Positions 2,085 through 62,187 of a stretch of 64,000 bases of DNA are shown here, piece after piece (position 1 is the first letter of the stretch; each line of letters begins with the position of its first letter). The stretch is from positions 11,054-75,053 of the IMG/VR virus record IMGVR_UViG_2765236019_000001, one strand, 5' to 3'. The position numbers and the translations under genes were made by a program. The notes beneath the pieces were generated by a model, which searched no databases, was not told the origin of the DNA, and saw nothing but the letters and a program-made list of their open reading frames with translations. Source of the DNA: a virus (lineage: Duplodnaviria > Caudoviricetes).

Positions 2085-2114
2085 AGAGTAGGTAGGAGGG
2101 TTCTTTTTGTGGTA
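2085..2114 (-). promoter_or_regulatory. Phage promoter motif TACC-N20-TACTCT
   Basis: Matches the motif repeated upstream of 13 units; directly follows a terminator hairpin. Confidence 0.7.
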
Positions 2115-2118
2115 ACGG

Positions 2119-2147
2119 GAAGGCCCCCGCTGTCAGCGGGGGCCTTC
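2119..2147 (-). terminator. Hairpin terminator after ruvC-like gene
   Basis: GAAGGCCCCCGC-TGTCA-GCGGGGGCCTTC. Confidence 0.75.
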
Positions 2148-2148
2148 T

Positions 2149-2721
2149 TCACGCCACCTGCTGCAATGGCGAAGCTCCTGTGGGTTTGAGGTGCTGCACT
2201 GCTGCTATCTCTTGCGGGGTTCCTCTGCCGGTGTAGACGGCGGAGGCAACGCGTGCCAGGGCGTAGGCGTCGGCGAGGTTGTCGTCGCGGAAAATGGCGC
2301 CGTATCTGTGGGAGACGGTGGCGATCATTTCCTGCTTCGTGGCATTTCCCTTTCCCGTGACGAACTTCTTGAGGGTGGTTGGGGGAACGACAAGAGGTCG
2401 CCGCCAGGGCTGCACGCCAGCAATCTCGGAGATGGCCAGCTTGACGGTCGCACCGAGTTCTCCGAGGGCCTCGCGCTGGTATTTCGATCCGTGAGAGTAG
2501 CCCTCCAGGGCGACTGCGGAGACTCCTCCGAAAGCGCAGCAGACGCCGGACAGCATCATTTGCACATCACGGAATATTCTGGCGAGCCGGTCGGACTGGG
2601 AGGCAAAATTCTTCGCTTCCCATCTGCTGGTCTTGGTCTGGTAAATCTCGCTGGGATGGCAGTAGATGGCCAGGGCGAAACCAGAGTAAGACTGATCGAT
2701 CCCGATGAACGGATACGTCAC
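2149..2721 (-). CDS. ruvC: RuvC-like Holliday junction resolvase
   Basis: IGIDQS, LEGYS, KKFVTGKGNATK and DDNLADA RuvC-family motifs; start reset to GTG 2721. Confidence 0.85.
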   Translation of the reverse strand: MTYPFIGIDQSYSGFALAIYCHPSEIYQTKTSRWEAKNFASQSDRLARIFRDVQMMLSGVCCAFGGVSAVALEGYSHGSKYQREALGELGATVKLAISEIAGVQPWRRPLVVPPTTLKKFVTGKGNATKQEMIATVSHRYGAIFRDDNLADAYALARVASAVYTGRGTPQEIAAVQHLKPTGASPLQQVA

Positions 2722-2945
2722 TAAACCTTCTCCCACTGGATGGCCGCACGCTCCAGGTGATGGTCGTAGGACACTTCTTCTGGACCCTCGTAGGGCCGGT
2801 CGCGGTAGAGCATGGAAAGCACCCACTGCGCCGAGGCAAGGCTCGCGTACGGCCCATACCGGAGACGGCGCTGTGTTCCGCACTTGTAGGTGATGCGGCG
2901 CACGACGCAGTAGACCTCCGAGGAATCTGTGCGAATGCGTCTCAT
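2721..2945 (-). CDS. Hypothetical protein
   Basis: ATGA overlap with upstream gene; stop overlaps ruvC start. Confidence 0.55.
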   Translation of the reverse strand: MRRIRTDSSEVYCVVRRITYKCGTQRRLRYGPYASLASAQWVLSMLYRDRPYEGPEEVSYDHHLERAAIQWEKV

Positions 2946-3385
2946 GCGGCCAGGTCCCCGTTCAGAACGGCACCGGGGATGTAGGGCGACCTGCGTGTGG
3001 TATGGGCACTGCACTTCAGGCAGACCAGAACGATGTGGGCCCTGGGGGTGCCTGGCGCGGCCACGGTGGTGGGCTGCCAGTTGTGGCGTGCCAGGTCTAT
3101 GCAGGTGTTAGGGAGTCGGCGCAGGGCTGCTGACGGGGACCTGAGCAGGACGTAGCAGTCGGAGGTGAAGCGGGTCCGGAGAATGCGGGATGTGCGGCCT
3201 CTTTGGTCCAAGTGTGTGGAGCCGGAGTCGACGCGCCGCTGCGTTCGGTCGCTATTGGTGAGGACGACGACCTCCACGCGGTTCGGGTGGACCTCTTCGA
3301 CGCGTACGGTTCGGCCGCGACGACGGCTGTCGGCGTCGGCCCAGACCTGGCCGGGTGCCACCAGGGATCGGCCCAGCTTGCTCAT
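2942..3385 (-). CDS. Hypothetical protein (PGQVWADADSR SH3-like N-terminus)
   Basis: 147 aa ORF abutting upstream stop. Confidence 0.6.
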   Translation of the reverse strand: MSKLGRSLVAPGQVWADADSRRRGRTVRVEEVHPNRVEVVVLTNSDRTQRRVDSGSTHLDQRGRTSRILRTRFTSDCYVLLRSPSAALRRLPNTCIDLARHNWQPTTVAAPGTPRAHIVLVCLKCSAHTTRRSPYIPGAVLNGDLAA

Positions 3386-3535
3386 CTAAACGCCCTTCCA
3401 GTGCAGTTCGGTGTCCATGTCGGGCTCCAGGCGGCAGGCTGTGCACAGGGCCTCACCGTCGATGTACTGGCGTTCTTCGTCGGCGTCGATCTCGTAGCCG
3501 CAGGCGCAGACAGTGGCGCTGAGGTGAGTGATCAC
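3386..3535 (-). CDS. 49 aa zinc-ribbon-like protein (CAC...CTAC)
   Basis: Hand-translated MITHLSATVCACGYEIDADEERQYIDGEALCTACRLEP...; fills the gap with a GTGA overlap. Confidence 0.6.
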   Translation of the reverse strand: MITHLSATVCACGYEIDADEERQYIDGEALCTACRLEPDMDTELHWKGV

Positions 3536-3879
3536 TGCTTCTCCCACTGCTCCAGGAGGCGGTCGTAGGCCGACTTGGAGCAGATGGCGTCAGCGCGCGC
3601 GGCGTCTCGCTCTGCTTGGGCCGCCTTCAGCTCCGCGCGCAGCCGGTCCATCTCCGCTGTGGCGTCTTCGAGCTGCCGCTTCCACATGGCAACGTCGGTG
3701 ACCTGTACGGCCGCCCGCAGGCGCTTCAGGTCGCCTTCGTCCAGGACGAGGGACAGCGCGAGGCTGGTGTCCTTGCACGCCAGGGCACGGTTTTGTACGA
3801 CGCTCCCGGAGGCCGTGGTGGCGTCGACCATGAGGTGGTGCCGAGTGCCGAGGGTGCTGAGGCGGAATCGTGTGGGCAT
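3532..3879 (-). CDS. Coiled-coil hypothetical protein
   Basis: MPTRFRL start after GGGAG; C-terminal heptads. Confidence 0.6.
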   Translation of the reverse strand: MPTRFRLSTLGTRHHLMVDATTASGSVVQNRALACKDTSLALSLVLDEGDLKRLRAAVQVTDVAMWKRQLEDATAEMDRLRAELKAAQAERDAARADAICSKSAYDRLLEQWEKQ

Positions 3880-3896
3880 TGTCTTGCTCCCGGTGG

Positions 3897-4061
3897 TCAG
3901 TTGGAGATGGGCCGGTAGTTCTTGGTGAGGTTTTCGGGACGGATGGATACGGCGGTCCGGCGGCCGGTGCCCAGGTTGTAGACGAAAGCGGATCGGAGCG
4001 CTGAGTTCGTCTTCGAGCTGCGGAGGACGGCGAGCTTCTGGAGGTCCTTGTGGAGATACAT
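3897..4061 (-). CDS. 54 aa hypothetical protein
   Basis: Hand-translated MYLHKDLQKLAVLRSS...; fills the gap. Confidence 0.4.
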   Translation of the reverse strand: MYLHKDLQKLAVLRSSKTNSALRSAFVYNLGTGRRTAVSIRPENLTKNYRPISN

Positions 4062-5466: not shown

Positions 5467-5951
5467 GCTGCTGCCTTTGTGGTTTGAGGATCGCCCACGT
5501 GGCGCCATGTTTCGTGGCGGACGACGCAGCCTACGGCTGTCCGGCCTATTCCGTGTGCGCGGGCTAGTTCGGATTGGGTGTAGTGGCCGCTGTCGTATTG
5601 CTGGCGTATCTGTCGGACGGTTTCCTCAGTGAGCTTGGCGTAGGGGTGTGATTCGCCGACGTGACGCGGTGGGGGCACTCCGCGTCCTTTGTGCCACATA
5701 TCGATGACGTTGTCGGCCTGCGTCCCTTCCGAGAGATGATCAGGGCGGACGCAGATGGTGTTGTCGCATGCGTGGAGGATGATTCCTTCGGGCATCTTTC
5801 CGGAGGCCAGATAGTAGGCGTATCGGTGTGCGTAGTAGCGCTTCCCCTGGGCCCAGAAGGTGCCGTATCCGTTGCCTCGGTTGCCCCCGGTCCATATCCA
5901 GCAGCCATCAGTCTTGTGTACTCGGGACCAGAACTCTTCTCCGGGGATCAC
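5463..5951 (-). CDS. HNH homing endonuclease with C-terminal HTH
   Basis: CWIWTG, GYG, AHR, HACDNTICVRPDHL, GESHPYAKLTE. Confidence 0.9.
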   Translation of the reverse strand: MIPGEEFWSRVHKTDGCWIWTGGNRGNGYGTFWAQGKRYYAHRYAYYLASGKMPEGIILHACDNTICVRPDHLSEGTQADNVIDMWHKGRGVPPPRHVGESHPYAKLTEETVRQIRQQYDSGHYTQSELARAHGIGRTAVGCVVRHETWRHVGDPQTTKAAA

Positions 5952-6304
5952 TTTGCTCTTGCCTTTTCGTCGAAGAGGCTGAGCGGCGGGGCGTTTTCGA
6001 CCGTCCACTTGTCGGGGAGCCTTCTGTAGTGCCTGCGCATCCAGCCGAGTTGCTGCTGGTTGAGCCCTCCCCAGCAGCCGAAGCGCTCGCAGTTGGCGAG
6101 GGCCTGGTACAGGCAGCTGTCCCGCATGGGGCAGACGACGCCGTCATTGGTTCCGTTGCAGATGTCGGCGGCGTGGTCCATGTCGTCGAACCAGGGATCA
6201 GTGACATTCGTGTGCGGCGTCGGGAATTTTCGGCACTTGGCCTCCTTGCAGGAGTCGTCGCCAGCGCTCCAGTCGGGTGCGGCCTTGCGTGAATACAGGG
6301 CCAC
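5948..6304 (-). CDS. whiB: WhiB-family Fe-S transcription factor
   Basis: C..., C-x7-CPMRDSCL and GCWGGL (GVWGG-like turn). Confidence 0.85.
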   Translation of the reverse strand: MALYSRKAAPDWSAGDDSCKEAKCRKFPTPHTNVTDPWFDDMDHAADICNGTNDGVVCPMRDSCLYQALANCERFGCWGGLNQQQLGWMRRHYRRLPDKWTVENAPPLSLFDEKARAK

Positions 6305-8056: not shown

Positions 8057-9988
8057 CTATCTCACATCGCACCCGTTTGCCGAACAGGCGTACTCCTGGC
8101 TACCCGTGGTGTGATCAGACCCCTCGTAGAAGACGAGGTCCGACCACACCAGGCGGGGCATTTGGTCGGTGAGGTGACGGTACGTCGCGTAGTCGCATTC
8201 CTGGTAGGGCGCCTGTGCGTAGGTGTGGTCGGAGTACGGGAGGAAAGCGACACCCGACAGCTCATGCAGGTGCTTCCACACCCAGTCGCGGACCTCCTCC
8301 CATTCACTGCCTCGGACAGAGATGGTGACTGACGGCTTGTGCTCGCAGTAGTGACGCTGGTAATCGAGCCAGAGATCCAGATGTTGAATCGCGGAGATAT
8401 TATCGCGTGTCCTCGAACCAGCTGCCGCCTGCTGCGGAAAGGAAAAAACAAGGTTCTGGTCGTTCAGAACGTCCATCTCATGCGGTACGCCCGCGTCGAT
8501 CAGGAAATCGGAGATCGGGTCCTTGACGTCGCTGCGCACGGTGCGAACCCAGTAGCGGCTGTGCGGCGGATGCAGGCCCGAAGGCACATCCGCCATCTGG
8601 GACGTAGTACCTTCGGGCTTGATGGCGGTGATGGCGTCGGCAGCGGGGATGCCGAGCATTTCGGCTTCCAGCTCGTTCGCTACGCGGGCCTCATCGCGCA
8701 AAAGCTCCAGAACTTGGTTCTTCAGCTCCCGGCCGCGCCCGTCCGTCAGAAGCCGGTTGCCGAATATGCCGGTCATGGAGACGCCGAGCAGTCGCTCTTC
8801 CTCGGCATTGCGTGACCACTCCTCACGCAGGAAGGGGAAGCCGGTCAGGGTCGCCTGCCAGGTGCCGAGAATGGCAGCCAAAGTGATCTTGCGCTTCAGC
8901 TCGGCGAGGCGGTCCTGCGGACGCACCACGACGGTGGATAGATTGCAGAAGCTGCGGGGCCGGAGGATGATCTCCGAACACGGGTTGGTCCCGTATTCGA
9001 TGCTGGGCTCCCGGCGGCCCCAGCGGGCCGCGATCCGGCGAGCGGCGTCCCGGTGGAAGATGCCGCGCTCCCCGCTCCCGGAGTCCTTGAGCATCCGCCA
9101 CTCGGCGTCGAACTGCTCGCGGGTGACGCCGTCGTGGTAGACCGCGGAGTTGTTGGCCAGCTTCCGATAGGGATGGCTTTCCCACCACTCCCCCGACTTG
9201 GCCAGCGCCATCTCCTGGTCGTCGAGATCGGACAGGCTGATCAGCGCCGACCGGCGCACACCGCCAACCACGACCACCGACGCAATCTTGCACACCAGAT
9301 CATGAGCCTCGATCGGCCGCAGCTTCCGGCCCTGGGCAACACGCAGCAACTCCACAGTGAACTCGAACAAATCCCGCAGCGGCTCAGGCCCGCTGGCCCG
9401 GCCTCCGAACGTCTTCAGGCGGGACCCTGCGGGCCGGATGCGGTCGTAATTGACGGTCGGTATACGTCCCTGGAGCCAGACCAGATCCAGTAGCTGGGCG
9501 TACGCCTCCGCCCAGCCCTGCTTGCTGTCCCCTACCCGCAGCACTGTGCTCAGGTCGAGTCGGGGGTGAGCGACGGGCGGCAACTTGTCGACGTAGCGCC
9601 GTTCCACGCTAAAACCGACCCCAGTGCCATTGAGCAGGATGAAGAGGACTTCCGAGAGGGATCGAATGTCATCGATCGGCGTGTAGGCGCAGTTGTACCC
9701 GGCGACGTTGGACAGATCGAGGGCTTCCCCTGCCGTCATCAGTGCGCGCATGGAGGGCAGCACCTCGTGGTTGAGTACGGCGTCGCGTAGCTGGTGGGCC
9801 AGCTCCTTCTCTGGGGTGTAGCCGTGCTTCTCCTTGAGGTGTCCCGTCATGAACTGGAAGAAGCGGTCAACCGTCTCAGTCCACGTCTCTCGGCGGCCGA
9901 GGTCATCGCGCCAGCGGGCGTAGCGGCTCTTTGCGATGTACGCCTGGTACGGGTCGGCGAGGTCGCCGTTGGTGTCGATGAGGGTCAT
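8057..9988 (-). CDS. nrdJ: Class II (B12-dependent) ribonucleotide reductase
   Basis: PSMRALM, YNC, GGVRRSA, TNPCSEI, KPEGT, EHKPS, C-terminal CSANGC; no small subunit nearby. Confidence 0.93.
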   Translation of the reverse strand: MTLIDTNGDLADPYQAYIAKSRYARWRDDLGRRETWTETVDRFFQFMTGHLKEKHGYTPEKELAHQLRDAVLNHEVLPSMRALMTAGEALDLSNVAGYNCAYTPIDDIRSLSEVLFILLNGTGVGFSVERRYVDKLPPVAHPRLDLSTVLRVGDSKQGWAEAYAQLLDLVWLQGRIPTVNYDRIRPAGSRLKTFGGRASGPEPLRDLFEFTVELLRVAQGRKLRPIEAHDLVCKIASVVVVGGVRRSALISLSDLDDQEMALAKSGEWWESHPYRKLANNSAVYHDGVTREQFDAEWRMLKDSGSGERGIFHRDAARRIAARWGRREPSIEYGTNPCSEIILRPRSFCNLSTVVVRPQDRLAELKRKITLAAILGTWQATLTGFPFLREEWSRNAEEERLLGVSMTGIFGNRLLTDGRGRELKNQVLELLRDEARVANELEAEMLGIPAADAITAIKPEGTTSQMADVPSGLHPPHSRYWVRTVRSDVKDPISDFLIDAGVPHEMDVLNDQNLVFSFPQQAAAGSRTRDNISAIQHLDLWLDYQRHYCEHKPSVTISVRGSEWEEVRDWVWKHLHELSGVAFLPYSDHTYAQAPYQECDYATYRHLTDQMPRLVWSDLVFYEGSDHTTGSQEYACSANGCDVR

Positions 9989-14792: not shown

Positions 14793-14913
14793 GGGATTCT
14801 CCCGCTGGTCGTTAGATGGCAGCGGCAGGGCATGTCCAGGCGTGCCATTGGCGGCCGTTGGCCTCCCCCTGCGGCTCTACAAGAACAGTACAACAGATGC
14901 ACAGTTTCTCAAC

Positions 14914-14943
14914 ACCTTCACATCTGTTGAACACTTGTTGGTA
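14914..14943 (-). promoter_or_regulatory. Phage promoter motif TACC-N20-GAAGGT
   Basis: Motif match, overlapped by CAACAGATG/CATCTGTTG inverted repeat. Confidence 0.5.
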
Positions 14944-16702: not shown

Positions 16703-16732
16703 AGGCTCGTCCTTAGCTCCGGACTTGTGTTA
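16703..16732 (-). promoter_or_regulatory. Phage promoter motif TAAC-N20-GAGCCT (leaderless)
   Basis: GTG start of the helicase lies 6 nt past the -10 hexamer. Confidence 0.65.
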
Positions 16733-20202: not shown

Positions 20203-20573
20203 CGGTGCCTCCCTCTCTGCTGTGCGGTTTTGCGCGCTCCGCACACTACGCAAGGGATGAGAAACTCCTCAACAGGTGACCATCTTTTTGAGGGTAGTTG
20301 GTATACGTTCCCTCGCGAGCCGCTAGGCGAGTCGATAGGGGCGTAGCCCCTTGAGGGCTTCGCCCATCCTTCGCAAGCTCAGGAGCGATAGAAGAGGGAG
20401 GGTTCGGCTCCCGCGCAGTGGGTGATGGCCAAAGAAACACTGGGCCCATTGATTTCATTCCGTCGCGAAAAGTGACGCGCATCACACCAACTGCGGTGTT
20501 GTTTGTTGGTACGCAGCACGACGCTTGGCGCAATCACGTTTTCGAGAAGGGGGACCTTATTCTGGCCCGGTAA

Positions 20574-28554: not shown

Positions 28555-28584
28555 ATTTTGTGCCAGGGCCTGGGTGTTGTATTA
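28555..28584 (-). promoter_or_regulatory. Variant phage promoter TAAT-N20-CAAAAT
   Basis: One-mismatch motif upstream of baseplate J. Confidence 0.45.
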
Positions 28585-40226: not shown

Positions 40227-40256
40227 AGATTCACATCAGATGTGCATGCGGTGTTA
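40227..40256 (-). promoter_or_regulatory. Phage promoter motif TAAC-N20-GAATCT
   Basis: Upstream of tail operon; contains the CACATCAGATGTG palindrome. Confidence 0.65.
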
Positions 40257-42921: not shown

Positions 42922-42951
42922 ATCTTCGCAGGGATTTTGCCTGGGGAGTTA
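42922..42951 (-). promoter_or_regulatory. Phage promoter motif TAAC-N20-GAAGAT
   Basis: Restarts structural genes after island A; overlapped by a 15-bp inverted repeat at 42903-42940. Confidence 0.65.
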
Positions 42952-50694: not shown

Positions 50695-50724
50695 AGTGTG
50701 ATCGGCCCGCGGAATAATCTGTTA
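50695..50724 (-). promoter_or_regulatory. Phage promoter motif TAAC-N20-CACACT
   Basis: Upstream of major capsid gene. Confidence 0.65.
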
Positions 50725-53330: not shown

Positions 53331-53360
53331 ATTCTTGAGGCCGCTGCGCGATATCTGTTA
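53331..53360 (-). promoter_or_regulatory. Phage promoter motif TAAC-N20-AAGAAT
   Basis: Between terminator and portal gene. Confidence 0.7.
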
Positions 53361-53833: not shown

Positions 53834-53868
53834 ATCGGTACCTCAATCGTGGATGAGCACTCTCTTTC

Positions 53869-53897
53869 ATGATTGAGGTATTGGCCCCATTGTGTTA
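53869..53897 (-). promoter_or_regulatory. Variant phage promoter TAAC-N19-AATCAT
   Basis: Restarts transcription after island B. Confidence 0.5.
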
Positions 53898-53925
53898 TCG
53901 AGCGATGTGGGCCGGTGAGAACGCA

Positions 53926-53957: not shown

Positions 53958-53985
53958 GTTTTTTGTTGTTGGTGGGCCGTCAGCG

Positions 53986-55041
53986 TTAGCTGGCGAGGGC
54001 CAGGTAGCTCGGGGTCATGAACAGCGCGGCGAAAGCTCCGGGTCCGAATCTGCCGTCGAGCCAGGCGCACAGCCCTCGCATGTCACCGCTGATCATGGCT
54101 GCGAGGATGGTGCTGTGCAGGCCGGATGCCTCCGGCCCGCCGATCCGGTCGAGGAAGCGCCCGTAGCGCCCGTTTACGGTTGCCTGGTACCGGCCCATGC
54201 TGCTGAGGTACAAGGTGTGCTCGGGGCCCTCCCCCGGTACTCCGGCGGCCAGTGCCGCGACGTCGCCCTCGGTGAGGCTGCCGGTCACGTCCCGGTAGGC
54301 ATACCGGTCGAGCCCGGCTGGCTCGGTGATGGCGTGGGTGTCAGCTGCTGCCCGGGTGATGGACCGCGCCTCTCGGTCGCAAGCCCCCTCCATCACGACA
54401 CCCAGGTTCCTCGTACTTTCGGCACCCTCTTTGTCCCGCGCCGAGTACGATCTCCCTTCCGCCGAACGGTAGTTGATGCCGTACTGGGTGCGCACCACCT
54501 CACCGTCACGCCACTGGTATCGGCGGGCACTGCCGTAGTGCAGGCAATCGTGGGCGTACCCGCGCAGCAGATCCAGCACTGCCAGCTCGGACGGTTCGGC
54601 GTTCATGTCCCCGTACGCGGTCACGAGCGCCACCATTTGCAGATGCCGGTATCCCTGGTTCGGGTGGTGGAATCCGCCGAATGCCTGCTGCCGGGTGGAG
54701 CTGACGGCGACCAAGAACCGGTCCGGGGGGAGAAACTGGGTCAGCCCGAGGTCTCCGTAGCGGGTGGTGAGGTCCGCGTAGCCGGTGTGCCACGCAGCGC
54801 AGTCCACGCCCTGCTGCTCCCATGTGCGGATGACCGTCGTCAGCGGCAGGAACTCGTGGTCGGGGTGCTGCTCTGCGGCGTAGGCGAGTGGGTTGGCGCG
54901 CAGGTTGGACAGGGCGTCCAGCAGAGGGCCAACCTGCGCGCCGGTGAGGGTTTCGCCGGGAGTCAGTTCCCGGTTTCTCCGAGGATCAGTTCCCGGTGGG
55001 AGGGCTGAAGTCCTGCGGGGAGAGAGGTCGGGGTGCACCAT
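53986..55041 (-). CDS. Hypothetical protein with gluzincin-like HDxxH...EG motif
   Basis: AHDCLHY and downstream MEGACDREA; GGAGG RBS. Confidence 0.65.
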   Translation of the reverse strand: MVHPDLSPRRTSALPPGTDPRRNRELTPGETLTGAQVGPLLDALSNLRANPLAYAAEQHPDHEFLPLTTVIRTWEQQGVDCAAWHTGYADLTTRYGDLGLTQFLPPDRFLVAVSSTRQQAFGGFHHPNQGYRHLQMVALVTAYGDMNAEPSELAVLDLLRGYAHDCLHYGSARRYQWRDGEVVRTQYGINYRSAEGRSYSARDKEGAESTRNLGVVMEGACDREARSITRAAADTHAITEPAGLDRYAYRDVTGSLTEGDVAALAAGVPGEGPEHTLYLSSMGRYQATVNGRYGRFLDRIGGPEASGLHSTILAAMISGDMRGLCAWLDGRFGPGAFAALFMTPSYLALAS

Positions 55042-55418
55042 TGCGCCTCCAGAATCTCGCTGCTGTCGATCTTGAGGGTCCCGCCGACGAGGGTGGCCTC
55101 GTATGCCACCTCGACGCGCAGTTTGTATCCGCTCTTGAGGTGGATGAGGCGGCCGGTTTTCACGTCCAGGCCGGTCTCCTCGTGGACCTCTCGCACCACC
55201 GTGTCGGCGAAGTCCTCGCCCCGGGTCGCGTAGCCGGTCGGCAGGCCCCAGGGCCGGTCTTGCGGCCACATACGGTGGCGGAGCAGGAGCACCCGGCCTT
55301 CGTGGTCACGGACTACGCCGGTCACGCCCACCATGTATTTCGCGTGGGCGAGCCAGAGGATGCGCCACTGCATCGGTCCTCGCAGTGCGCGCCAGACGCG
55401 GGCGACGATGGTCTTCAT
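54963..55418 (-). CDS. NUDIX hydrolase
   Basis: GLPTGYATRGEDFADTVVREVHEETGL Nudix box. Confidence 0.92.
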   Translation of the reverse strand: MKTIVARVWRALRGPMQWRILWLAHAKYMVGVTGVVRDHEGRVLLLRHRMWPQDRPWGLPTGYATRGEDFADTVVREVHEETGLDVKTGRLIHLKSGYKLRVEVAYEATLVGGTLKIDSSEILEAQWCTPTSLPAGLQPSHRELILGETGN

Positions 55419-55501
55419 GTTCCTGCCTTCCGTAGGTGGAGGCGGATCACAATGGCGCATCTGGCGTGATGAGCCAAATGCGCTGAGTAACTCACCCCTC
55501 C

Positions 55502-55566
55502 ATAGTGGCGTAGGCCACAGGCCACTGTCAAGGCTGATGCCCTATCATGTTTGTGGCCTAGTCCAC
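55502..55566. promoter_or_regulatory. Divergent promoters with two GntR/HutC-type operators
   Basis: GTGGCGTAGGCCAC (55505) and GTGGCCTAGTCCAC (55553); TTGACA-N18-CACTAT on minus, TATCAT on plus. Confidence 0.7.
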
Positions 55567-55584
55567 CAGTTGAGGAGGAACGCC

Positions 55585-56337
55585 GTGAGCCCAGAGATCA
55601 CGCGCCCACTGCCGCCCTACATGCAGGTGGTCACCCACCTGCGAGAACAGATCATCACGGGGGCGCTCGCAGACGGAGACGTCGTACCCAGCGAGCGCCA
55701 GCTGGAGCGGGACTGGGGAATCAGCCGGTCCACCGCGACAAAGGTCCTTGGCGTGCTGCGCGCCGAGGGCTTGGTGACCTCCCGTCAGGGCGTCGGCACC
55801 ATCGTCACCACCAAGACCCTGCACCACTCCGCCTACGACCGCACGCGGGCAGTAGAGATCACCGGCCGCATCTATCCCAAGGGACAGTACGCCAAGATCC
55901 TCTCTGCCCGGATCGAGCCCGCCTCGGAGCGAGCAGCACAGGCCCTTGGCATCGAGCCCGGCCAGGAGGCCATCCGGCGTCAGCGAGTCACCTACGCCGA
56001 GTCCGGCGCCGCAGTCAGTGCCTCCACCAGCTGGTTCGACCTCGAACTCGCAGAAATTGTCCCGCAGCTGCTCAGCACCGAGCGCATTCCCGGAGGCACC
56101 GCCAAGGCCATCGAGGACGCCACCGGCCGGTCATGGACGGACGCCGACGAACTGCTCCAGGCGCGCATCGCCTCGGACGAAGACGCCGACCTGCTCGGCA
56201 TCACGGAGCGCCCCTCCGCGATCATCGTCGGCTACAACCGGCTGGTGGACGAGTCGGGCCGCACCCTCGAATACGGCGAGTACCTGTGTCACGGCGACCG
56301 CATCACCCGCTACTCCTACGCACGACCACGCGACTGA
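55585..56337 (+). CDS. GntR-family regulator (HutC/UTRA, KorSA-like)
   Basis: PY.Q...LR..I, PSER.L...GISRST, G.GT; UTRA C-terminus. Confidence 0.92.
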   Translation: MSPEITRPLPPYMQVVTHLREQIITGALADGDVVPSERQLERDWGISRSTATKVLGVLRAEGLVTSRQGVGTIVTTKTLHHSAYDRTRAVEITGRIYPKGQYAKILSARIEPASERAAQALGIEPGQEAIRRQRVTYAESGAAVSASTSWFDLELAEIVPQLLSTERIPGGTAKAIEDATGRSWTDADELLQARIASDEDADLLGITERPSAIIVGYNRLVDESGRTLEYGEYLCHGDRITRYSYARPRD

Positions 56338-56368
56338 CAAAACCGGCAGGCAAGACGGCGGTTGAGCG

Positions 56369-56403
56369 TTGTGGGGGCGGACCCAACGGGTCCGCCCCCA
56401 CAA
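56369..56403. terminator. Terminator between convergent genes
   Basis: TTGTGGGGGCGGACCC-AAC-GGGTCCGCCCCCACAA. Confidence 0.8.
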
Positions 56404-56418
56404 TCTTTGGAACCGATG

Positions 56419-57051
56419 TCAGCCACGCCGACGCTGGACGATGAAGATGCCGCTCTGGTCGTGGCTCTCAGCCCGTTTCAGAGAGCAGCCTGACTGGAGG
56501 GCTTTGGCTGCCAGGACGTAGCCGTCACCCGTGTCGACCACACTCACCGGCCCGCGATTGCTGTTGGCGATGATGGGCTCACCGGGAGCTGCGATGGTGT
56601 ATCCGCGCCGCCTGTACCACCGCAGGACGCTCCGGTCGCGCAACGCGACATTTGCGACCAGCAGATGGCGGCCCAGTTCCCGCTCTTCGTCTTCTACCGC
56701 TGCCAGGAGCCCACCACCTAACCCGTGCTCACGGTGGTCCTCATATACAGCCAGCAGCTCGATTTTGGTGAACAGCCGGGCCAGGGATGGGCGGGCCGGA
56801 GCAGGATATTCGTCGAGCCAGGAAATTGGCGGAGCTGTATAAACCATGCCCGCCACCTGGCCCTGGTCGTCCACGGCAACACGGCAAATCCCTTGACCGT
56901 ACCGCAGCGTGATACGACCGCCCTCGGCGTCGACCTGGCCGGGGAGCCCCCGGTCCGCATAGCCGTCGACAACACCGAGCGCGATGCCTGCCAGGGCCGC
57001 GACGTGGGGACCGTCGCCCGGCGCAGCCGTGCGGACAGAGAGCAGCCTCAT
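56419..57051 (-). CDS. GNAT acetyltransferase
   Basis: LAV..DHREHGLGGGLL motif A; WYRRRGY motif B. Confidence 0.85.
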   Translation of the reverse strand: MRLLSVRTAAPGDGPHVAALAGIALGVVDGYADRGLPGQVDAEGGRITLRYGQGICRVAVDDQGQVAGMVYTAPPISWLDEYPAPARPSLARLFTKIELLAVYEDHREHGLGGGLLAAVEDEERELGRHLLVANVALRDRSVLRWYRRRGYTIAAPGEPIIANSNRGPVSVVDTGDGYVLAAKALQSGCSLKRAESHDQSGIFIVQRRRG

Positions 57052-57347
57052 GCTGAACTCCTCCCACTGCCCCACATGGTTTCTACCTCGCCGTGCTGGA
57101 CAAGGGCGTCGCCCTCGGTGCGAGCATCCTCGCACTCGGTGCTCCACGTGCTCCCGCCGTCACGCGAGACTCCCGTGGCGAACATGCAACCCACTCCCGT
57201 CGCGTCATCGACCCCCTCCCACACGGTCCGAACCAAGACTCCGTGGGAGGGGGCCGATGACGCGACCGCTCGATACGTCATGTCGTTCCACAGCGCTGCC
57301 CACTCGTCAGGGGTGATCTCCGTGCCCTGCCGATCCCTATACACCAT
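57048..57347 (-). CDS. Small phage hypothetical protein
   Basis: 99 aa, V.TVW.GVD motif; ATGA overlap with GNAT gene. Confidence 0.65.
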   Translation of the reverse strand: MVYRDRQGTEITPDEWAALWNDMTYRAVASSAPSHGVLVRTVWEGVDDATGVGCMFATGVSRDGGSTWSTECEDARTEGDALVQHGEVETMWGSGRSSA

Positions 57348-57371
57348 GCGGCCATCATCCCACTGCCTAGC

Positions 57372-57884
57372 TCACCAGCTCGTCCAGGCGTACGTCCGAC
57401 TGGTAAGCCGAGGCACCGGGATCGGCTGATAGGGCTCGTCGACCTCCAGGGCGTGGAGCTGCTGGACAGTGTCACCCACACCAGACGGGACACGGATCAT
57501 GAACTGCCGCCCAGCTGGCATGACTTCCCAGACCGAGTACGAGATCGCCGCGGCCAGTGACGGGCCGGTGGAAGCTGGAAGGGTCATCGCCAGCTGGCCG
57601 TCACGGACCGGCACACGCGTGGTTGTGGGAAGGATGCGGATGCCGGTAGTGGTGTCGACCAGAGGTGCTGCTGCGCGTACCAGAACACTGGCCCGGTAGA
57701 CCGCTGCCTCACTCCCCCACAGGTACGTCGCCCCGAGCCTCACCTGCTCGATGTGCTCGGGGAACTGCGGCTTCTGCGTCGGGACCTGGTCGTGGCCGAT
57801 GGGGCGCTGCGCCGTCCAGCCAGGAATCCACCAGGGATTGGTCTCCCAGCCCCGCGGCGGGTGCTCGTACGGGAAGCCGCCCAT
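57372..57884 (-). CDS. Hypothetical, probably virion protein
   Basis: 170 aa, beta-rich, coupled to upstream gene. Confidence 0.6.
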   Translation of the reverse strand: MGGFPYEHPPRGWETNPWWIPGWTAQRPIGHDQVPTQKPQFPEHIEQVRLGATYLWGSEAAVYRASVLVRAAAPLVDTTTGIRILPTTTRVPVRDGQLAMTLPASTGPSLAAAISYSVWEVMPAGRQFMIRVPSGVGDTVQQLHALEVDEPYQPIPVPRLTSRTYAWTSW

Positions 57885-57885
57885 C

Positions 57886-58431
57886 TCAGGTCGTAACGAC
57901 GGCGACGGCGGGAGTCGACCGGCGTCCGCTGGCGTCGATTGCGGTCAGGGTGAAGCGGTACCGGGGTGCTCGGATCTTGTGGCCGGTGAGGTCGAGCTTG
58001 TACGTGGTGAGGCCACCGTCGAGCTGTACGAGGAAGGCCCGGCTGGGGTCAGCGGGATTGACGTCGATCTCGCCCTCGTGGCGCTGGAGTTCGTAAGAGG
58101 CCGGCGCGCCGGAGGCGGGCGTGGTCCAGGTGAAGGTGATCACCGGAGCGGGCCCGCCCTGAGAGCCATTGAAGGACCCGGCCAGGTGCGTGGGGTACGA
58201 CGGCGGCCGGGTATCGGGAGTCAGCGCCGCCCAGCCCTTGGTGAGGAACGGGTCGCCGGGGCGTGCCCGCCCTTGCAGGTCGTAGAAGTTGGTGGGTCGC
58301 CAGCCAAGGAGCGCCTGGTCGCGCTCCTTGGCCAGCTTGGAGGCGTCGGCCTTCAGCTGAGCGTTTTCTGCCGTCAGCGCGGCGATCTGGCGCTTCAGCT
58401 CATCGACGGTGGGGTCCGGCGGCGTGGTCAT
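57886..58431 (-). CDS. Coiled-coil + FN3/Ig-like protein, probably virion decoration
   Basis: P..PT.L...ITFTW..P..Y.L...Y.F...A.D..G..S. Confidence 0.65.
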   Translation of the reverse strand: MTTPPDPTVDELKRQIAALTAENAQLKADASKLAKERDQALLGWRPTNFYDLQGRARPGDPFLTKGWAALTPDTRPPSYPTHLAGSFNGSQGGPAPVITFTWTTPASGAPASYELQRHEGEIDVNPADPSRAFLVQLDGGLTTYKLDLTGHKIRAPRYRFTLTAIDASGRRSTPAVAVVTT

Positions 58432-58462
58432 GCATCCTCCAGGAAAGCGGGCGGCTTTCTGG

Positions 58463-58492
58463 ATTATCCGCGCAAACGTTCCCTCACCGGTA
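58463..58492 (-). promoter_or_regulatory. Phage promoter motif TACC-N20-GATAAT
   Basis: Overlaps the terminase stop, upstream of FN3 gene. Confidence 0.65.
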
Positions 58493-60013
58493 GAAGAAAT
58501 TTTCCTGGGTTTGAATCTCCGGCATGGACATCTCCGCAGATGCCCACACTGATAGCGCCAGCGAATCCACGTAGTCGTCATGGGCGCCGGTTTCATCGGG
58601 AGCCTCGACGATGATATTCGGGCCCTGGAAGCGCAGTTCCGCATCTTCCATCTGCGTCTGGAAGCGCCGCCACACCTTAAGACGCCGCGCCTTCGAATGC
58701 CCCGGCCAAGCAAGCTTGCCCTGGCGCATCAATTCCATGAGGTGTTTCCAGCGTTTCGACTGTGCACCGAGATCCGAGTTGCACTCCACGATTTCGACAT
58801 GCGGCATCAAAACTTTGAGACGGGAAGCGACCACGTCGCCGACGCCTCCGACATCGATGCAGATCGCCCATATGTTGTACGCGCTCAGCCAGTCGACGAT
58901 TCGGTAGTACTGCTCCTCCCATTCGAGGCCAGACAGATCCAGCCAGTTGAGGACTCGGTGCTCATACATCCCGAACTCGTCAGGGTGGTCCCAATCCACC
59001 CACGTAACCGTGACAATGGTGGCGTCCTGTTTCCTGGCCGGGTCGATGCCTACGAGGACTGGCGTGTGATTCCAGGCCTTGACCACCTGCATGGAGCTGT
59101 CACATAGTGCCTCGAATTTCTCCCCGGTCGTGAGCATTCCTCGGTCCAGCATCCAGATGAGTCGGTAGCTCAATTTGAACTCGTCCGAGTCCTCACCGAT
59201 CTTGAGCTTCTCGGCCTCGATGTAGACGCCGTAGTCGGGGTGCGCCTTGGCGACGTCCTTCCAGGTGGCCTCAAAGTGGTTCTGCCGCTGCCCTCGACGA
59301 TTAGCCAAGCGCCTATTCTGCTGAATGATCTTGTAGAAGATGCCCTTGAAATAGGTCGGCGTGCCGGTGAGGACCATCGTCCCGCGAGTGCTGGCGAGCA
59401 TCGGGGAGATGCTCTTGTTGATGACCCGCTCGTCAGCGACCTGCGCCTCATCGACCAGCACGACGTGGTAAGTCCGTCCCTCGATCTGAGCCCGCGGATG
59501 GCATGTCTGTTTCCGCACCAGTGACCCCGACTTGACCAGCTTCAGTTCCCGGCCCTTGCCTGAAACTTTGTCGTCGACCTCGGGGTCCTGCATGATCTCC
59601 TGGGCCCGCTCGGAGGTGAGCCGGGTAACAAACCTCGAATACAAGTTGTCCGCCATGTCATCAACTGGAGCGAAAGCTCCAACCCACACGCCTTCGGCGA
59701 AGCGCCCCATCAGGTTCGGAAATATTGGAGCGAGCTTCGGGAACATGATCATCGCTGCGGCGATCGTGTTGACTATGGTTTCGGTCTTGCCGGACTGCCG
59801 GGCCATGCACGAGGTAATGGTCCTGGCATCACCGAGAATCACCGATTCCAGGATCCGCCGGGCCAGGGGTTTCTGATAGTGCCTCAGAGGGTGCCCGGAC
59901 AGCTCGTCGACCACCAAGAGCAACTTGTCGATGATCTGGTCGACGGTCTCCTGGCTGATCTCCGGGAATCTCTCGGCACCATCTTCTTCTTGCACCGCGA
60001 CCGCTCCACCCAT
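58484..60013 (-). CDS. terL: Terminase large subunit
   Basis: YQ, ARQSGKT, VDEAQ, LTGT, GIDPA, HDDYVDS. Confidence 0.95.
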   Translation of the reverse strand: MGGAVAVQEEDGAERFPEISQETVDQIIDKLLLVVDELSGHPLRHYQKPLARRILESVILGDARTITSCMARQSGKTETIVNTIAAAMIMFPKLAPIFPNLMGRFAEGVWVGAFAPVDDMADNLYSRFVTRLTSERAQEIMQDPEVDDKVSGKGRELKLVKSGSLVRKQTCHPRAQIEGRTYHVVLVDEAQVADERVINKSISPMLASTRGTMVLTGTPTYFKGIFYKIIQQNRRLANRRGQRQNHFEATWKDVAKAHPDYGVYIEAEKLKIGEDSDEFKLSYRLIWMLDRGMLTTGEKFEALCDSSMQVVKAWNHTPVLVGIDPARKQDATIVTVTWVDWDHPDEFGMYEHRVLNWLDLSGLEWEEQYYRIVDWLSAYNIWAICIDVGGVGDVVASRLKVLMPHVEIVECNSDLGAQSKRWKHLMELMRQGKLAWPGHSKARRLKVWRRFQTQMEDAELRFQGPNIIVEAPDETGAHDDYVDSLALSVWASAEMSMPEIQTQENFFYR

Positions 60014-60049
60014 AAGCCCCGCTCCTCGAATTTCACGAAATCGAGATCG

Positions 60050-60079
60050 AGGCTATGAACCGGAGCAGAAAAAACGTTA
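60050..60079 (-). promoter_or_regulatory. Phage promoter motif TAAC-N20-TAGCCT
   Basis: Upstream of terminase. Confidence 0.7.
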
Positions 60080-60179
60080 CTCCCAGATAGGCGGCAATCA
60101 GCCGCTTCCCTTCACCGAACACCCACGCCACCCACCCCTGCTGTAGCCTTCCCCGCACACAACGGGTCGGGGAGGGAAC

Positions 60180-60767
60180 GTGCACAACGTGCAAAGAGCA
60201 GGCTGGGCGGCAGCTGGAGCACAACTCTGGGCGCAACAGGCCGACCAATGGCGTGACGTGCAGGAACACGGCCACGCATACGTCGAGCAGAAACGGCACG
60301 CAGCCTGGCAGGAGGCACAACTGCACTCCCCGTACTCCCCCAAGCGCCTGGCTCTGACCCGCATCTGCTACGTCGTCACCTACGGGATGCTCGCGCTCGC
60401 CGTCGTTGCCGCACTCATAGCGGGCGGACAGGACGGCGGCGGCGCCCGCGTCGTGCTGGGGGTCGGTGTCTACACCTGCCTGCTGTCGCTCCCCCTCTAC
60501 CTGGCCCTCAGCCTGCGCACCGGACGCCTCATCGCACGCGCAACGGCGCTCACGACGCTGGAGGATCCCGCCGCCAGGTCTCGGTCGGCCGCCGAGTACG
60601 GTGTCCGGTCCGCGTCCCAGCCCCTGTACGCCGCCGTCGGCGCGCTCGGCTGCATGGTCGCCGGTCTTCTGCCCTGGCCCCGACTGCACATCCGCATGTA
60701 CCAAGGCGCCCTGTTCGCAGCCCGGTACCGCGGCCTCGACATCTCCTGCGTCACCGACGGACGATAG
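60180..60767 (+). CDS. Membrane protein with 2-3 TM helices, opposite strand
   Basis: GGGAGGG RBS; hydrophobic segments. Confidence 0.65.
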   Translation: MHNVQRAGWAAAGAQLWAQQADQWRDVQEHGHAYVEQKRHAAWQEAQLHSPYSPKRLALTRICYVVTYGMLALAVVAALIAGGQDGGGARVVLGVGVYTCLLSLPLYLALSLRTGRLIARATALTTLEDPAARSRSAAEYGVRSASQPLYAAVGALGCMVAGLLPWPRLHIRMYQGALFAARYRGLDISCVTDGR

Positions 60768-61008
60768 CCCGGCGTGCCAGCTCCTCCAGCGTTCCAGCGA
60801 CCACGACCAGGCCCTCAGCGGCCTGGTCAAGCTGCTCCTGGTCCACGTTCTTGCGCAGCTCACCCACTGCGCGGGACACCTGGGTGACCCCCTGGTCGGC
60901 CCACTCGGCAACATCCGCCGTCGGCAACGCTGCGCTCCGGCGGGCGACACGATCACGAAGCCGATGACCAGGCACCAGCTCGCGCAAAACCCTCAAAGTC
61001 CGCTTCAC
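60751..61008 (-). CDS. Helical hypothetical protein
   Basis: GTG start; packaging region. Confidence 0.6.
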   Translation of the reverse strand: MKRTLRVLRELVPGHRLRDRVARRSAALPTADVAEWADQGVTQVSRAVGELRKNVDQEQLDQAAEGLVVVAGTLEELARRAIVRR

Positions 61009-61132
61009 CGATCGACCCCCAGCATCTGAAGCAGCCGCCACTCGTCGTCCATATCGAGAGCAAGATCAGCGACCATCCTGCGCACCGTATCCGCGTCCGT
61101 GGTGGCATCGGCCTCGTAGAACTCGTCTTCCA

Positions 61133-61351
61133 TCAGCCCACCATCCGGAAGATCGATCGCATCGCGGCATCCTCGTCGGCCAGCACTCGGGTATACCGGC
61201 CAACCGCCAAGCCTCTCCGGAACCCAATACGGACGACGTATGTCCTATCACTGCGCCGATAAGGCGCGGACGTTTCCTGTGTCCAAGTGATGAAGAAGGG
61301 TCTCTGCCCCTTGTTCACGCCGACTACGCGGCAAAAGAAATTAGTGGCCAT
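61133..61351 (-). CDS. Hypothetical protein (QET..PYR motif)
   Basis: ATG 7 nt after the promoter -10 (leaderless-like). Confidence 0.6.
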   Translation of the reverse strand: MATNFFCRVVGVNKGQRPFFITWTQETSAPYRRSDRTYVVRIGFRRGLAVGRYTRVLADEDAAMRSIFRMVG

Positions 61352-61358
61352 GACCCGC

Positions 61359-61388
61359 ATCCTTACGCGGGCCGGACCCAATCAGTTA
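61359..61388 (-). promoter_or_regulatory. Phage promoter motif TAAC-N20-AAGGAT
   Basis: Motif match; start codon at predicted TSS. Confidence 0.6.
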
Positions 61389-61676
61389 TTCCTGGTTCAG
61401 CAGCGACGAGGGCATACGTGCAGTCGTCTGCGGGTCGATACCGTGGGAGCGGAGCTGCACTGAATAGTCAATGCTGGATTCCCGGTAGTAGCGCAACAGC
61501 TCCTCCAGCTCTCGCACATAGCGCCGCAGCTGAAGGAGCGCAGCCTCCTGCTCTTCCCGGAGGTCGCGCTGCTCCTGCTGGGCGGCTGAGCGCCTGGCCT
61601 GCCAAACGGTGGCCCAGGTAGCCAGAGAGGCAATGCCGCCGCCGCCGAAGAACGCCGCAATTATTTCAGGCGACAT
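61386..61676 (-). CDS. Single-TM + coiled-coil protein (holin/lysis-accessory-like)
   Basis: N-terminal hydrophobic helix, then coiled coil. Confidence 0.6.
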   Translation of the reverse strand: MSPEIIAAFFGGGGIASLATWATVWQARRSAAQQEQRDLREEQEAALLQLRRYVRELEELLRYYRESSIDYSVQLRSHGIDPQTTARMPSSLLNQE

Positions 61677-61684
61677 CGCACCTC

Positions 61685-62119
61685 CTAGGAAATTCGACGG
61701 TACGGATGATTCCTCAAGGTGCTGTTGATGTACCGTCCCTCGGACGTGGCCTTACGGACGTGCCGCCACTGGCTCTCGGAGACCCGGTAGTACTCGTACA
61801 CCGGACCTCCTGGACGCCCCCTGCCCTGCTCACCATTCCGGAACTGGATGCGCAGGGTGTGTGTCTTGTAGTCATAGCCTGCGGCCACCGTTCGCGGGCG
61901 CTCCGGGTTGACCGTGTGGTCAGGGTATGTCGAGAAGGTGAACAGTGCCGCGGTGTCGCCGTCCTCGAAGGCCGCCAGGCGCTCCTGAATTTTTGGGCTG
62001 GCGTTTTTCCGTGCTTGGTACTGGAGTCGCTCGATCTGGCGCTTGGTATACGGGCTGCGGTTTTCGAAGTTACTCCCGCGCGCGGGGAGCGGCTTTGGCC
62101 TGGCGTACTTTTTTGCCAC
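61685..62119 (-). CDS. KTSC-domain protein
   Basis: GYD....L.IQFRNG...YEY..V......ATS.GRYIN..LR..Y. Confidence 0.8.
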   Translation of the reverse strand: MAKKYARPKPLPARGSNFENRSPYTKRQIERLQYQARKNASPKIQERLAAFEDGDTAALFTFSTYPDHTVNPERPRTVAAGYDYKTHTLRIQFRNGEQGRGRPGGPVYEYYRVSESQWRHVRKATSEGRYINSTLRNHPYRRIS

Positions 62120-62157
62120 GATGGCTCCTACGGCGAAGACGAGCGAAGTACATTGCA

Positions 62158-62187
62158 ATTCTAAGTTTGCGGCCCCGCCATGAGGTA
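62158..62187 (-). promoter_or_regulatory. Phage promoter motif TACC-N20-TAGAAT
   Basis: Directly after terminator, upstream of KTSC gene. Confidence 0.72.

Follow-up and report, generated by a model that had tools for sequence, protein, structure and literature searches.

By what promoters are the packaging and virion genes of a large Streptomyces prophage transcribed, and what protein reads them? The question is raised by a 64,000-nucleotide (nt) stretch of phage DNA (positions 11,054 to 75,053 of IMG/VR record IMGVR_UViG_2765236019_000001; hereafter the window), in which a preliminary description had listed 13 copies of a bipartite motif, TA[AC]C-N20-NANNNT, on the minus strand at gene boundaries, and had taken them for a late regulon in which a phage activator reading the TAMC box (M being A or C) redirects the host RNA polymerase. 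The motif is real, and its placement and its conservation in related prophages support the view that it acts as a promoter; that the housekeeping sigma factor HrdB reads the hexamer while a phage-specified protein reads the box is the account we tentatively favour. The window corresponds to bases 11387-75386 of a 109,610-bp contig (G000:C124) in a genome of 7.52 Mb and 73.3% G+C, here called G000; G001, G002 and G003 are three other genomes that carry related prophages.

At each of the 13 sites, named here by the position of the first base, the minus-strand sequence was as listed, 11 of them conforming exactly to TA[AC]C-N20-NANNNT and two departing from it in the manner already described, 53897 by a 19-nt spacer (TAAC...AATCAT) and 28584 by its box (TAAT-N20-CAAAAT). 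When both strands of the whole window were counted, the exact pattern occurred 20 times, compared with 11.34 ± 3.31 times after shuffling (2 of 100 shuffles reached 20). Fifteen of these matches are on the minus strand and five on the plus strand, and those lying in intergenic DNA for at least 70% of their length number 12 of the 15 and one of the five, respectively. Genes were called, and intergenic DNA thereby defined, with a simple codon-usage caller of our own rather than a standard program; the intergenic set in the window comprised 32 segments and 9,623 nt, the intergenic share of the window being 14.3%. This DNA held 12 matches on the coding strand and one on the opposite strand, in keeping with the placement originally reported, and 1000 dinucleotide shuffles of it gave 1.19 ± 1.13, with a maximum of 6 and none at 12; the comparison with shuffled intergenic DNA, which the preliminary description had proposed as a check, thus comes out in favour of the motif. 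When the spacing was varied, the intergenic DNA of the window gave 12 matches at N20 and between 0 and 5 at each of 27 other spacings. Because the pattern had been picked by a reader after looking at the sequence, we scored 37,632 head-by-spacer patterns, among which it ranks first with a naive Poisson p of 3.4e-6; after Bonferroni correction this becomes ~0.13, so that the window taken alone is only suggestive.

Conservation in related phage genomes had been proposed as a second check. Capsid searches led to relatives in G001 (L004, 92% capsid identity), G002 (L005, 91%) and G003 (L006, 81%), where the prophages are low-G+C islands of ~105-110 kb with host-like DNA at both sides, and to a more distant relative in a Nonomuraea genome (L007 in G004, 72%). 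Counted with the unchanged, pre-specified pattern, intergenic coding-strand matches numbered 14 in G001, 13 in G002 and 18 in G003, compared with 2.70 ± 1.62, 2.49 ± 1.71 and 2.99 ± 1.58 in shuffled DNA, and 18 on the whole contig of G000, compared with 2.64 ± 1.59 (300 shuffles each, with a largest value of 8). Each of these four genomes held 2-3 matches on the opposite strand, and each gave one sharp peak, at the same spacing. The sites form 13 ortholog groups that stand ahead of the same genes, and T, A and C of the box and A and T of the hexamer are kept in every orthologous pair, against an ungapped identity of 55.9% in the spacers (1,220 positions) and 47.0% in the flanks (2,440 positions). 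Counterparts in at least one relative exist for 12 of the 13 sites, and to this extent the original list stands; the exception, 14943, has none in G001-G003, a sigma-70-like promoter is conserved there instead, and the site is probably a chance match. At greater distance the signal becomes weaker: among metagenomic relatives with 73-77% capsid identity, which still show it, L021 holds 10 matches, all on the coding strand, compared with 4.5 ± 2.1 on both strands of shuffled DNA, and L014 holds 14, nine of them on the coding strand, compared with 8.0 ± 2.7; in each case 7 of 200 shuffles reached the observed number.

A logo was built from all intergenic sites of the four prophages, 53 in number. 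It shows T, A, A/C and C, then A, as the bases conserved upstream, 20 nt from the hexamer, where no TTGACA-like -35 element is found; the box is TAAC at 36 sites and TACC at 17, A comes next at 31, and no position or dyad of the spacer is conserved. The hexamer begins with T at 25 sites, G at 16, A at 8 and C at 4, about half of the hexamers thus having the form TANNNT of a housekeeping-like -10 element. The A (position 2) and T (position 6) of the hexamer were fixed by the search pattern and draw independent support from the conserved leaderless genes described below, whose start codons lie 6-7 nt downstream. Strict sigma-70 consensus sequences occur at or below chance in the parts of the window that were scanned for them (1-40000 and 44001-64000), with 3, 1 and 1 matches compared with 3.8, 2.3 and 2.0.

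Measured from the final T of the hexamer, the called start codon is 5-9 nt away at 7 of the 53 sites, 28-45 nt at 30, 46-130 nt at 13 and more at 3. At three ortholog groups the start codon lies 6-7 nt downstream, as had been observed for the GTG at 16732 (6 nt) and the ATG at 61388 (7 nt); the third is a 326-amino-acid (aa) gene outside the window (window position -4755) whose ATG is 7 nt past the hexamer in all four genomes. The gene at 61388 had been missed by our caller and is represented in all four genomes by open reading frames (ORFs) of 72-81 aa that are conserved over their full length, each with ATG 7 nt past the hexamer; its product has no family in the PHROG search. At 16732 an in-frame TAG stands two codons upstream of the helicase GTG. 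Since actinobacterial leaderless mRNAs begin at the start codon, these three cases would place the T of the hexamer at -7 or -8, as in a -10 element. The statement that several sites directly follow a terminator also holds, for 62187, 53360, 50724 and 2114 (-23.8 to -28.3 kcal/mol, z -4.1 to -6.3). It is because the motif is intergenic and on the coding strand, often adjoins a terminator, keeps a fixed distance to the start codon, precedes leaderless genes and is conserved at orthologous positions that we consider its behaviour as a promoter to be supported. The sites and the features around them are collected in Table 1.

Table 1. Candidate promoters of the TAMC class, sigma-70-like promoters, terminators and selected genes, with the state of the sites in the four prophage genomes (hexamers of relatives in the order G001, G002, G003).
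Feature	Position	Strand	Sequence and setting	Genomes and relatives
Candidate promoter A	62158..62187	minus	TACC-N20-TAGAAT, 39 nt ahead of KTSC-domain gene 61685-62119	4/4; TAGAAT, TAGACT, TAAAAT
Intrinsic terminator upstream of A	62193..62222	minus	T-tail runs into TACC; -27.2 kcal/mol, z -6.3, 0/200 shuffles as good	
Candidate promoter B	61359..61388	minus	TAAC-N20-AAGGAT; TAA is the stop of a 96-aa gene	4/4; TACGGT, TACGTT, TAGCTT
Leaderless 72-aa gene	61133..61351	minus	ATG 7 nt past hexamer of B	
Candidate promoter C	60050..60079	minus	TAAC-N20-TAGCCT, 37 nt ahead of large terminase gene	4/4; TAGCCT in all; spacer identity 0.49
Candidate promoter D	58463..58492	minus	TACC-N20-GATAAT; TACC within last terminase codons; next start codon 28-34 nt away	4/4; GACAAT, GATAAT, GATAAT
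Candidate promoter E	53869..53897	minus	TAAC-N19-AATCAT, ahead of 133-aa gene 53432-53833	4/4; N20 in relatives, GACCAT, GAGCAT, GACCAT
Candidate promoter F	53331..53360	minus	TAAC-N20-AAGAAT, 38 nt ahead of portal gene	Three genomes; AAGAAT in 3/4
Terminator upstream of F	53380-53412		-23.8 kcal/mol, z -4.1	
Candidate promoter G	50695..50724	minus	TAAC-N20-CACACT, 98 nt ahead of major capsid gene; weakest hexamer score	3/4; CAGACT in G001 and G002
Terminator upstream of G	50738-50787		-25.3 kcal/mol, z -4.2	
Candidate promoter H	42922..42951	minus	TAAC-N20-GAAGAT, ahead of 120-aa gene 42522-42884	4/4; TAAC-N19-GAAGAT in G001 and G002, TAAC-N20-CAGTAT in G003
Candidate promoter I	40227..40256	minus	TAAC-N20-GAATCT, 33 nt ahead of gene 39595-40194; then tail sheath and tube genes	4/4; GATTCT, GATTCT, GAATCT
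Candidate variant promoter	28555..28584	minus	TAAT-N20-CAAAAT, ahead of baseplate wedge gene 27003-28517; TAA is the upstream stop	4/4; TAAT-N20-CAAAAT or CAGAAT, spacers differ
Candidate promoter J	16703..16732	minus	TAAC-N20-GAGCCT; GTG of helicase gene 15080-16696 6 nt past hexamer, leaderless	G000 and G003 only; segment missing from G001 and G002
Site 14943	14914..14943	minus	TACC-N20-GAAGGT	G000 only
Candidate promoter K	2085..2114	minus	TACC-N20-TACTCT, 47 nt ahead of gene 1742-2038	4/4; TACTCT, TATTCT, TACCCT
Terminator upstream of K	2119-2147		-28.3 kcal/mol, z -5.6	
Sigma-70-like promoter	14885..14912	minus	TTGAGA-N16-TACTGT, ahead of gene 14325-14792; 30 nt downstream of 14943	Hexamer (TAGTGT or TACTGT) conserved in G001 and G002
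Sigma-70-like promoter	20243..20272	minus	TTGAGG-N18-TAGTGT, head of replication module (gene 19657-20202)	TTGAGA-N18-TAGTGT in G001 and G002
Second-class promoter	outside window		TTGAAC-N17-TAGTGT, ahead of integrase gene	
Second-class promoter	outside window		Near-consensus TTGACA/TTGACT-N17-TANTGT, heading short arm	4/4
Large terminase gene	58484-60013	minus	PHROG/Pfam	
Portal gene	51602-53293	minus	PHROG/Pfam	
Major capsid gene	49614-50597	minus	PHROG/Pfam	
Tail sheath gene	38015-39580	minus	PHROG/Pfam; then tube and baseplate genes	
DnaC-, DnaB-, primase-like, helicase, DNA polymerase, ribonucleotide reductase, RecA-like and WhiB-like genes		minus	PHROG/Pfam	
Zinc-ribbon protein, 205 aa	outside window		Beside integrase gene	

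At two sites the hexamer and a hairpin coincide. The hexamer of 61388 tops a hairpin of -21.3 kcal/mol (z -1.4 in the window; in the relatives the stem is longer by eye), whose descending stem and T-run are at the same time the first codons of the leaderless gene, and the hexamer of 42951 lies in the loop of a hairpin at 42902-42941 (-30.3 kcal/mol, z -7.2) that is followed by a T-rich stretch and then by a ribosome-binding site. If both signals work, transcripts arriving from upstream would stop there, and new ones would start in the descending stem and so escape the terminator. An 11-bp palindrome, ACATCTGATGT, or a near copy of it occurs on the minus strand at ~40236-40246, in the spacer of 40256, and at ~53312-53325, just past the hexamer of 53360, and a related inverted pair, CAACAGATG...CATCTGTTG, is found at 14890-14930; the palindrome may be an operator. 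One exact match inside a gene, TACC...TACCGT at 8177-8206 on the minus strand in the ribonucleotide reductase gene, is kept in all four genomes and stands 135 nt ahead of a 58-aa gene; it could serve as an internal promoter or owe its conservation to the coding sequence alone.

The host DNA was examined with the same pattern. In its 7.41 Mb the TAMC form occurs 345 times at N20, compared with 333-390 times at neighbouring spacings of the same codon phase, and thus gives no peak; TAAC alone occurs 58 times, compared with about 63. The control pattern TTGAC-N18-TANNNT does peak in the host (34, 21 and 21, compared with about 4). Among 5,863 leaderless-like host contexts 10 matches stand at the N20 spacing, without a peak, and TTGAC peaks again. 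These counts, too coarse to reveal a host regulon of under about ten promoters, support the view that the motif class is phage-specific and give no indication that it belongs to the promoters of the host.

The motif has, as sequence architecture only, the form of a -10 element combined with a box that replaces the -35. We infer that transcription starts at these sites, late, with HrdB reading the hexamer and a phage factor reading the box: NANNNT would be the -10 element, with its A and T at -11 and -7, transcription would begin 6-8 nt past the hexamer to give either leaders of 25-35 nt with a ribosome-binding site or leaderless mRNAs, and the box T-A-(A/C)-C, usually with A after it, would stand at -36 to -32 in place of a TTGACA-like -35. 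HrdB holoenzyme would read the -10, a phage-specified protein would occupy or re-tool the -35 position and read the box, and the promoters would be silent until that protein is made. That these are late promoters of a BRock-related temperate phage operated in this way is our leading account, which we hold at somewhat less than even odds. We rank an adaptor of HrdB slightly above a dedicated sigma factor because about half of the hexamers are TANNNT and because actinobacterial adaptors are known (PafBC, WhiB/WhiA).

It is possible, if on balance doubtful, that both elements are instead read by a dedicated sigma factor, either a divergent phage protein or a host alternative sigma factor with a tiny regulon that the phage activates. 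The box stands where sigma region 4 normally binds, the rigid spacing (N20, with N19 at a few sites) is typical of one protein reading both elements, and nTAACA is one base from TTGACA, at the G. Sigma70_r2 genes number at least 31 in the host, the counts above would miss a regulon there of under about ten promoters, and many phage sigma factors elude profile searches. Against this stand the lack of a motif excess in the host and the outcome of every search for such a factor. As the preliminary description had stated for the window, no phage sigma factor or RNA polymerase is recognisable there, nor is one on the whole 109.6-kb contig. PHROG searches with 75 window proteins and 16 candidates gave no match of MotA, AsiA, RinA, ArpU or sigma type, and Pfam searches, which covered part of the window proteins (90 at E 0.001 or better, 30 at E 1 or better and 3 more), gave no sigma or activator family. 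A six-frame search of G000 that used PF04542 and PF08281, but neither PF04545 nor PF04539, gave no Sigma70_r2 match on the contig, and the sole Sigma70_r4_2 match there (12.5 bits, E about 1) is to a protein with an ortholog in G001 alone. A hidden Markov model (HMM) of 30 host sigma ORFs, run against all ORFs of at least 50 aa in five phages, found nothing conserved, its best score (15.6 bits) belonging to an ORF present in G000 only. When 70 ortholog alignments were compared with the sigma alignment by hhalign, the best probability was 3.6%, at noise level, for the 205-aa zinc-ribbon protein.

Many small conserved proteins of the prophage are without family, and several candidates were followed individually. 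A word-based homolog search with the zinc-ribbon protein returned itself alone, a PDB profile search returned nothing, and an exhaustive profile search returned 10 representatives, to which Pfam assigns no family at E 0.001 or better; with Foldseek at the same threshold its model, which has a predicted local distance difference test (pLDDT) score of 66.5, matched nothing, and its best VIA Z was 4.4. The model of the 155-aa protein encoded at 14325-14792 (pLDDT 82.6) had no Foldseek match either, its best VIA Z of 5.1 being due to a long helix only, and the predicted folds of both candidates thus match no sigma factor. The 181-aa protein encoded at 19657-20202 has 11 homologs, all unnamed Streptomyces proteins, and for it and the 155-aa protein the Atlas held only viral hypothetical proteins. 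The DNA-binding proteins conserved in the four prophages are a WhiB-like protein (5948-6304; Pfam Whib, E 4e-7), a MerR-like helix-turn-helix protein (13834-14328) and the zinc-ribbon protein, and no result links any of them to the motif; comparison of gene content with motif presence across the relatives singled out no gene. Control of long-spacer promoters in the manner of MerR, suggested by the MerR-like gene, was set aside, the spacers having no conserved dyad, as was the host WhiA motif, which lies upstream of a separate -35 element.

We consider it improbable that the motif is not a promoter at all and is some other oriented protein-binding site, such as the stoperator-like repressor sites of Cluster A mycobacteriophages, or a signal linked to termination. 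The sites are indeed asymmetric, intergenic and of a single orientation relative to transcription, and several adjoin or sit in terminator hairpins. Stoperators are contiguous asymmetric motifs of ~13 bp in one orientation; here the orientation holds, yet the conserved part consists of two short blocks, 4-5 bases and then A and T, that are 20 nt apart with nothing conserved between them. The second block has the exact -10 signature and lies 6-7 nt ahead of the start codons of three conserved genes, without room for a ribosome-binding site, and the remaining distances to start codons cluster at 28-45 nt. Still less probable is that a loose pattern picked post hoc reflects chance, TAA stops, AT-rich intergenic DNA and shared inheritance, for although the corrected p for the window alone is ~0.13, TAA is an upstream stop at 61388 and 28584 and 14943 is not conserved, stop codons were rejected as the source of TAAC since just these two of the 13 sites use one and TACC makes up 17 of 53 boxes, the same intergenic DNA when shuffled gives 1.19 matches rather than 12, the defining bases are kept in every orthologous pair where spacers are 56% and flanks 47% identical, and the metagenomic relative L021 shows the peak too, with all its matches on the coding strand.

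Several observations weigh against the account in which HrdB and a phage-specified protein share these promoters. The information in the motif is low, at about 14-15 bits including selection bias; exact matches are also found within genes, where three of the window's 15 on the minus strand lie; and intergenic DNA was defined by a crude home-made gene caller. The hexamers of 61388 and 42951 sit inside hairpins and could owe part of their conservation to them. Because the four prophages are of common descent, their counts cannot be treated as independent; it is the divergence of the spacers that provides independence. The searches of the contig yielded no activator or anti-sigma candidate. The Nonomuraea relative has 7 matches, not significantly more than the 3.9 ± 2.0 expected, and BRock, with crude gene calls, shows no spacing peak, its intergenic regions appearing TTGACA-like by eye; without clear enrichment in these two, the class would be confined to one subclade. 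Finally, 14943 lacks conservation and 16732, missing in two of the four genomes, serves a replication helicase, so that the class is not cleanly late.

How far, then, is the regulon a late one? TAMC sites precede terminase, portal, capsid, neck, tail and baseplate genes and small uncharacterised genes among them, and, beyond the window, a LysM-transglycosylase gene with those next to it. Seven of the 12 conserved sites stand ahead of terminase, portal, capsid, neck, tail or baseplate genes or of a conserved gene within that block, and the other five precede three uncharacterised genes that adjoin the block (62187, 61388, 58492), small uncharacterised genes (2114) and the helicase gene (16732). 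The candidate regulon thus comprises about 12 sites that mainly precede packaging, head, neck, tail and baseplate genes, and, with a replication helicase among its members, it would be mostly rather than strictly late.

Early and replication genes would be served by a second class, TTGACA/TTGAGA...TAGTGT, read by the host enzyme unaided; its members outside the window lie at about 64112 and 69568. The two classes fit a division in which the host enzyme by itself runs an early and middle programme and the late one depends on an additional component. The sequence CATCTGTTG is present in the spacer of several second-class promoters (TTGAGA/TTGACA-N16-18-TAGTGT). In the short arm a 10-mer, TAGGTACGAC, recurs on the coding strand at gene junctions (G000:C124 ~84,690-102,780, outside the window), often directly past a stop codon and sometimes 1 nt ahead of an ATG, with 10 copies in G000, about 7-10 in each of G001-G003 and 0-1 per strand in the Nonomuraea relative; we take it to resemble the start-associated sequences of Cluster K mycobacteriophages.

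PHROG and Pfam scans identify the phage as contractile-tailed. The contig has a G+C content of ~63%, its last 4 kb excepted, and two arms, a long one of ~86 genes on the minus strand and a short one of ~49 genes on the plus strand. The capsid protein is 66-67% identical to those of Streptomyces phage BRock and its kin; BRock is a virulent myovirus of 112.5 kb and 52.3% G+C (PMC7453282). Judged from its sequence, the window comes from a temperate phage of about 105 kb that is related to BRock. The element has both a tyrosine integrase between the arms (window 63116-64000) and a large serine recombinase near one contig end (G000:C124 1400-3148). Also between the arms, outside the window (G000:C124 77,095-79,753), the contig encodes an MmyB-like regulator, a TetR regulator and a type III polyketide synthase-like protein, none of which the three related prophages have.

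Within the late arm, an island of foreign or poorly coding genes at 43,800-49,550 separates the neck and capsid modules. Its genes encode, on the minus strand, an anti-sigma-like HATPase_c_2 protein (47788-48222) and, on the plus strand, proteins of the HTH_31+DUF5753 (48430-49320) and DUF397 (49317-49544) types, a trio known from Streptomyces WhiJ/AbaA-like loci; ~2.5 kb at 44,400-46,880 are without confident gene, transfer RNA or Rfam match. Two genes of the late arm run in the opposite orientation (55585-56337 and 60180-60767, both plus strand), one encoding a GntR/UTRA regulator and the other a 195-aa protein, and both are probably additions expressed in lysogeny. The 195-aa protein is missing in G002, where candidate promoters B and C are 682 nt apart, compared with 1340-1382 nt elsewhere. 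In G003 the match to capsid residues 1-300 (L006/L010) spans 1,224 nt, compared with 981 nt elsewhere, which suggests that the capsid gene carries an insertion.

A phage-specific late promoter class is a well-known kind of element, and what is new here is the consensus, the clade and the unrecognised factor; in the full-text literature searched, which takes in few subscription journals, we found no description of the motif or of late promoters in these phages and no account of how actinobacteriophages switch on late genes. Phage T4 middle promoters are used through sigma appropriation by MotA and AsiA, the MotA box being centred near -30. The sites described here resemble them in combining a TAnnnT -10 with a phage box in place of the -35 and, as proposed, in forming a temporal class that is silent until phage proteins are made; they differ in the box, TAMC(A) at -36 to -32, in the actinomycete host and in that no such Pfam family was matched among the part of the window proteins searched. 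The late sigma factors and activators of other phages (SPO1 gp33/34, T4 gp55, RinA/ArpU type) likewise have a promoter consensus of their own ahead of packaging, head and tail genes, and none of them is recognisable on the contig. HrdB/SigA promoters (TTGACA-N17-TAnnnT) share the A at position 2 and the T at position 6 of the hexamer and, to judge by the predicted leaderless genes, starts 6-7 nt downstream; here, in contrast, TTGACA is lacking, the spacing is 2 nt longer when nTAACA is aligned to TTGACA, and the TAMC class is absent from the host, where TTGAC-N18-TAnnnT peaks. Promoters of extracytoplasmic function sigma factors carry AAC in the -35 and CGT in the -10, whereas the hexamers here have no preference for CGT and 17 of the 53 boxes are TACC.

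Closer in host are two actinobacterial systems. In mycobacterial sigma adaptation (PMC8635444) the housekeeping holoenzyme reads a canonical -10, and PafBC is inserted in place of the contact between sigma domain 4 and the -35, with the motif tGTCgg-N10-tA-N3-T and its upstream element at -26. That bipartite consensus is like ours in its fixed gap and in joining a canonical -10 to an upstream element of its own; it differs in that in our logo GTC is missing at -26 and the upstream element is instead TAMC, placed at -36 and separated from the hexamer by 20 nt, and in that PafBC is a host DNA-damage factor, whereas the motif is without excess in the host here. WhiB-like proteins bind region 4 of sigma-A, alone or with WhiA; the DNA contacts of WhiB are without sequence specificity, and GACAC, the motif of WhiA, is found upstream of a -35 element that is separate from it (PMC10243135). 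Our phage encodes a WhiB-like protein; its box, however, replaces the -35, and BRock likewise has a WhiB-like gene yet shows no such motif.

The analysis provides a defined promoter consensus that recurs at about 12 sites in each genome, is shared by four or more prophages and can also be seen in metagenomic relatives. It serves as a handle for finding the factor and for annotating transcription units and leaderless genes, and could possibly be used for phage-inducible, host-orthogonal expression parts in Streptomyces. It may be, and we put this forward with some reserve, that a clade of ~105-kb temperate Streptomyces myovirus-like prophages re-programmes the housekeeping polymerase through a hitherto unrecognised protein that reads a TAMC(A) box at -36, with some of the promoters embedded in terminator hairpins, where read-through would end and a new late transcript, leaderless in one case, would begin. 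Sigma appropriation or adaptation would then have a further actinobacterial example, and a box reader that turned out to be a sigma adaptor of a new kind would broaden a mechanism for which T4 and PafBC are the cases known so far.

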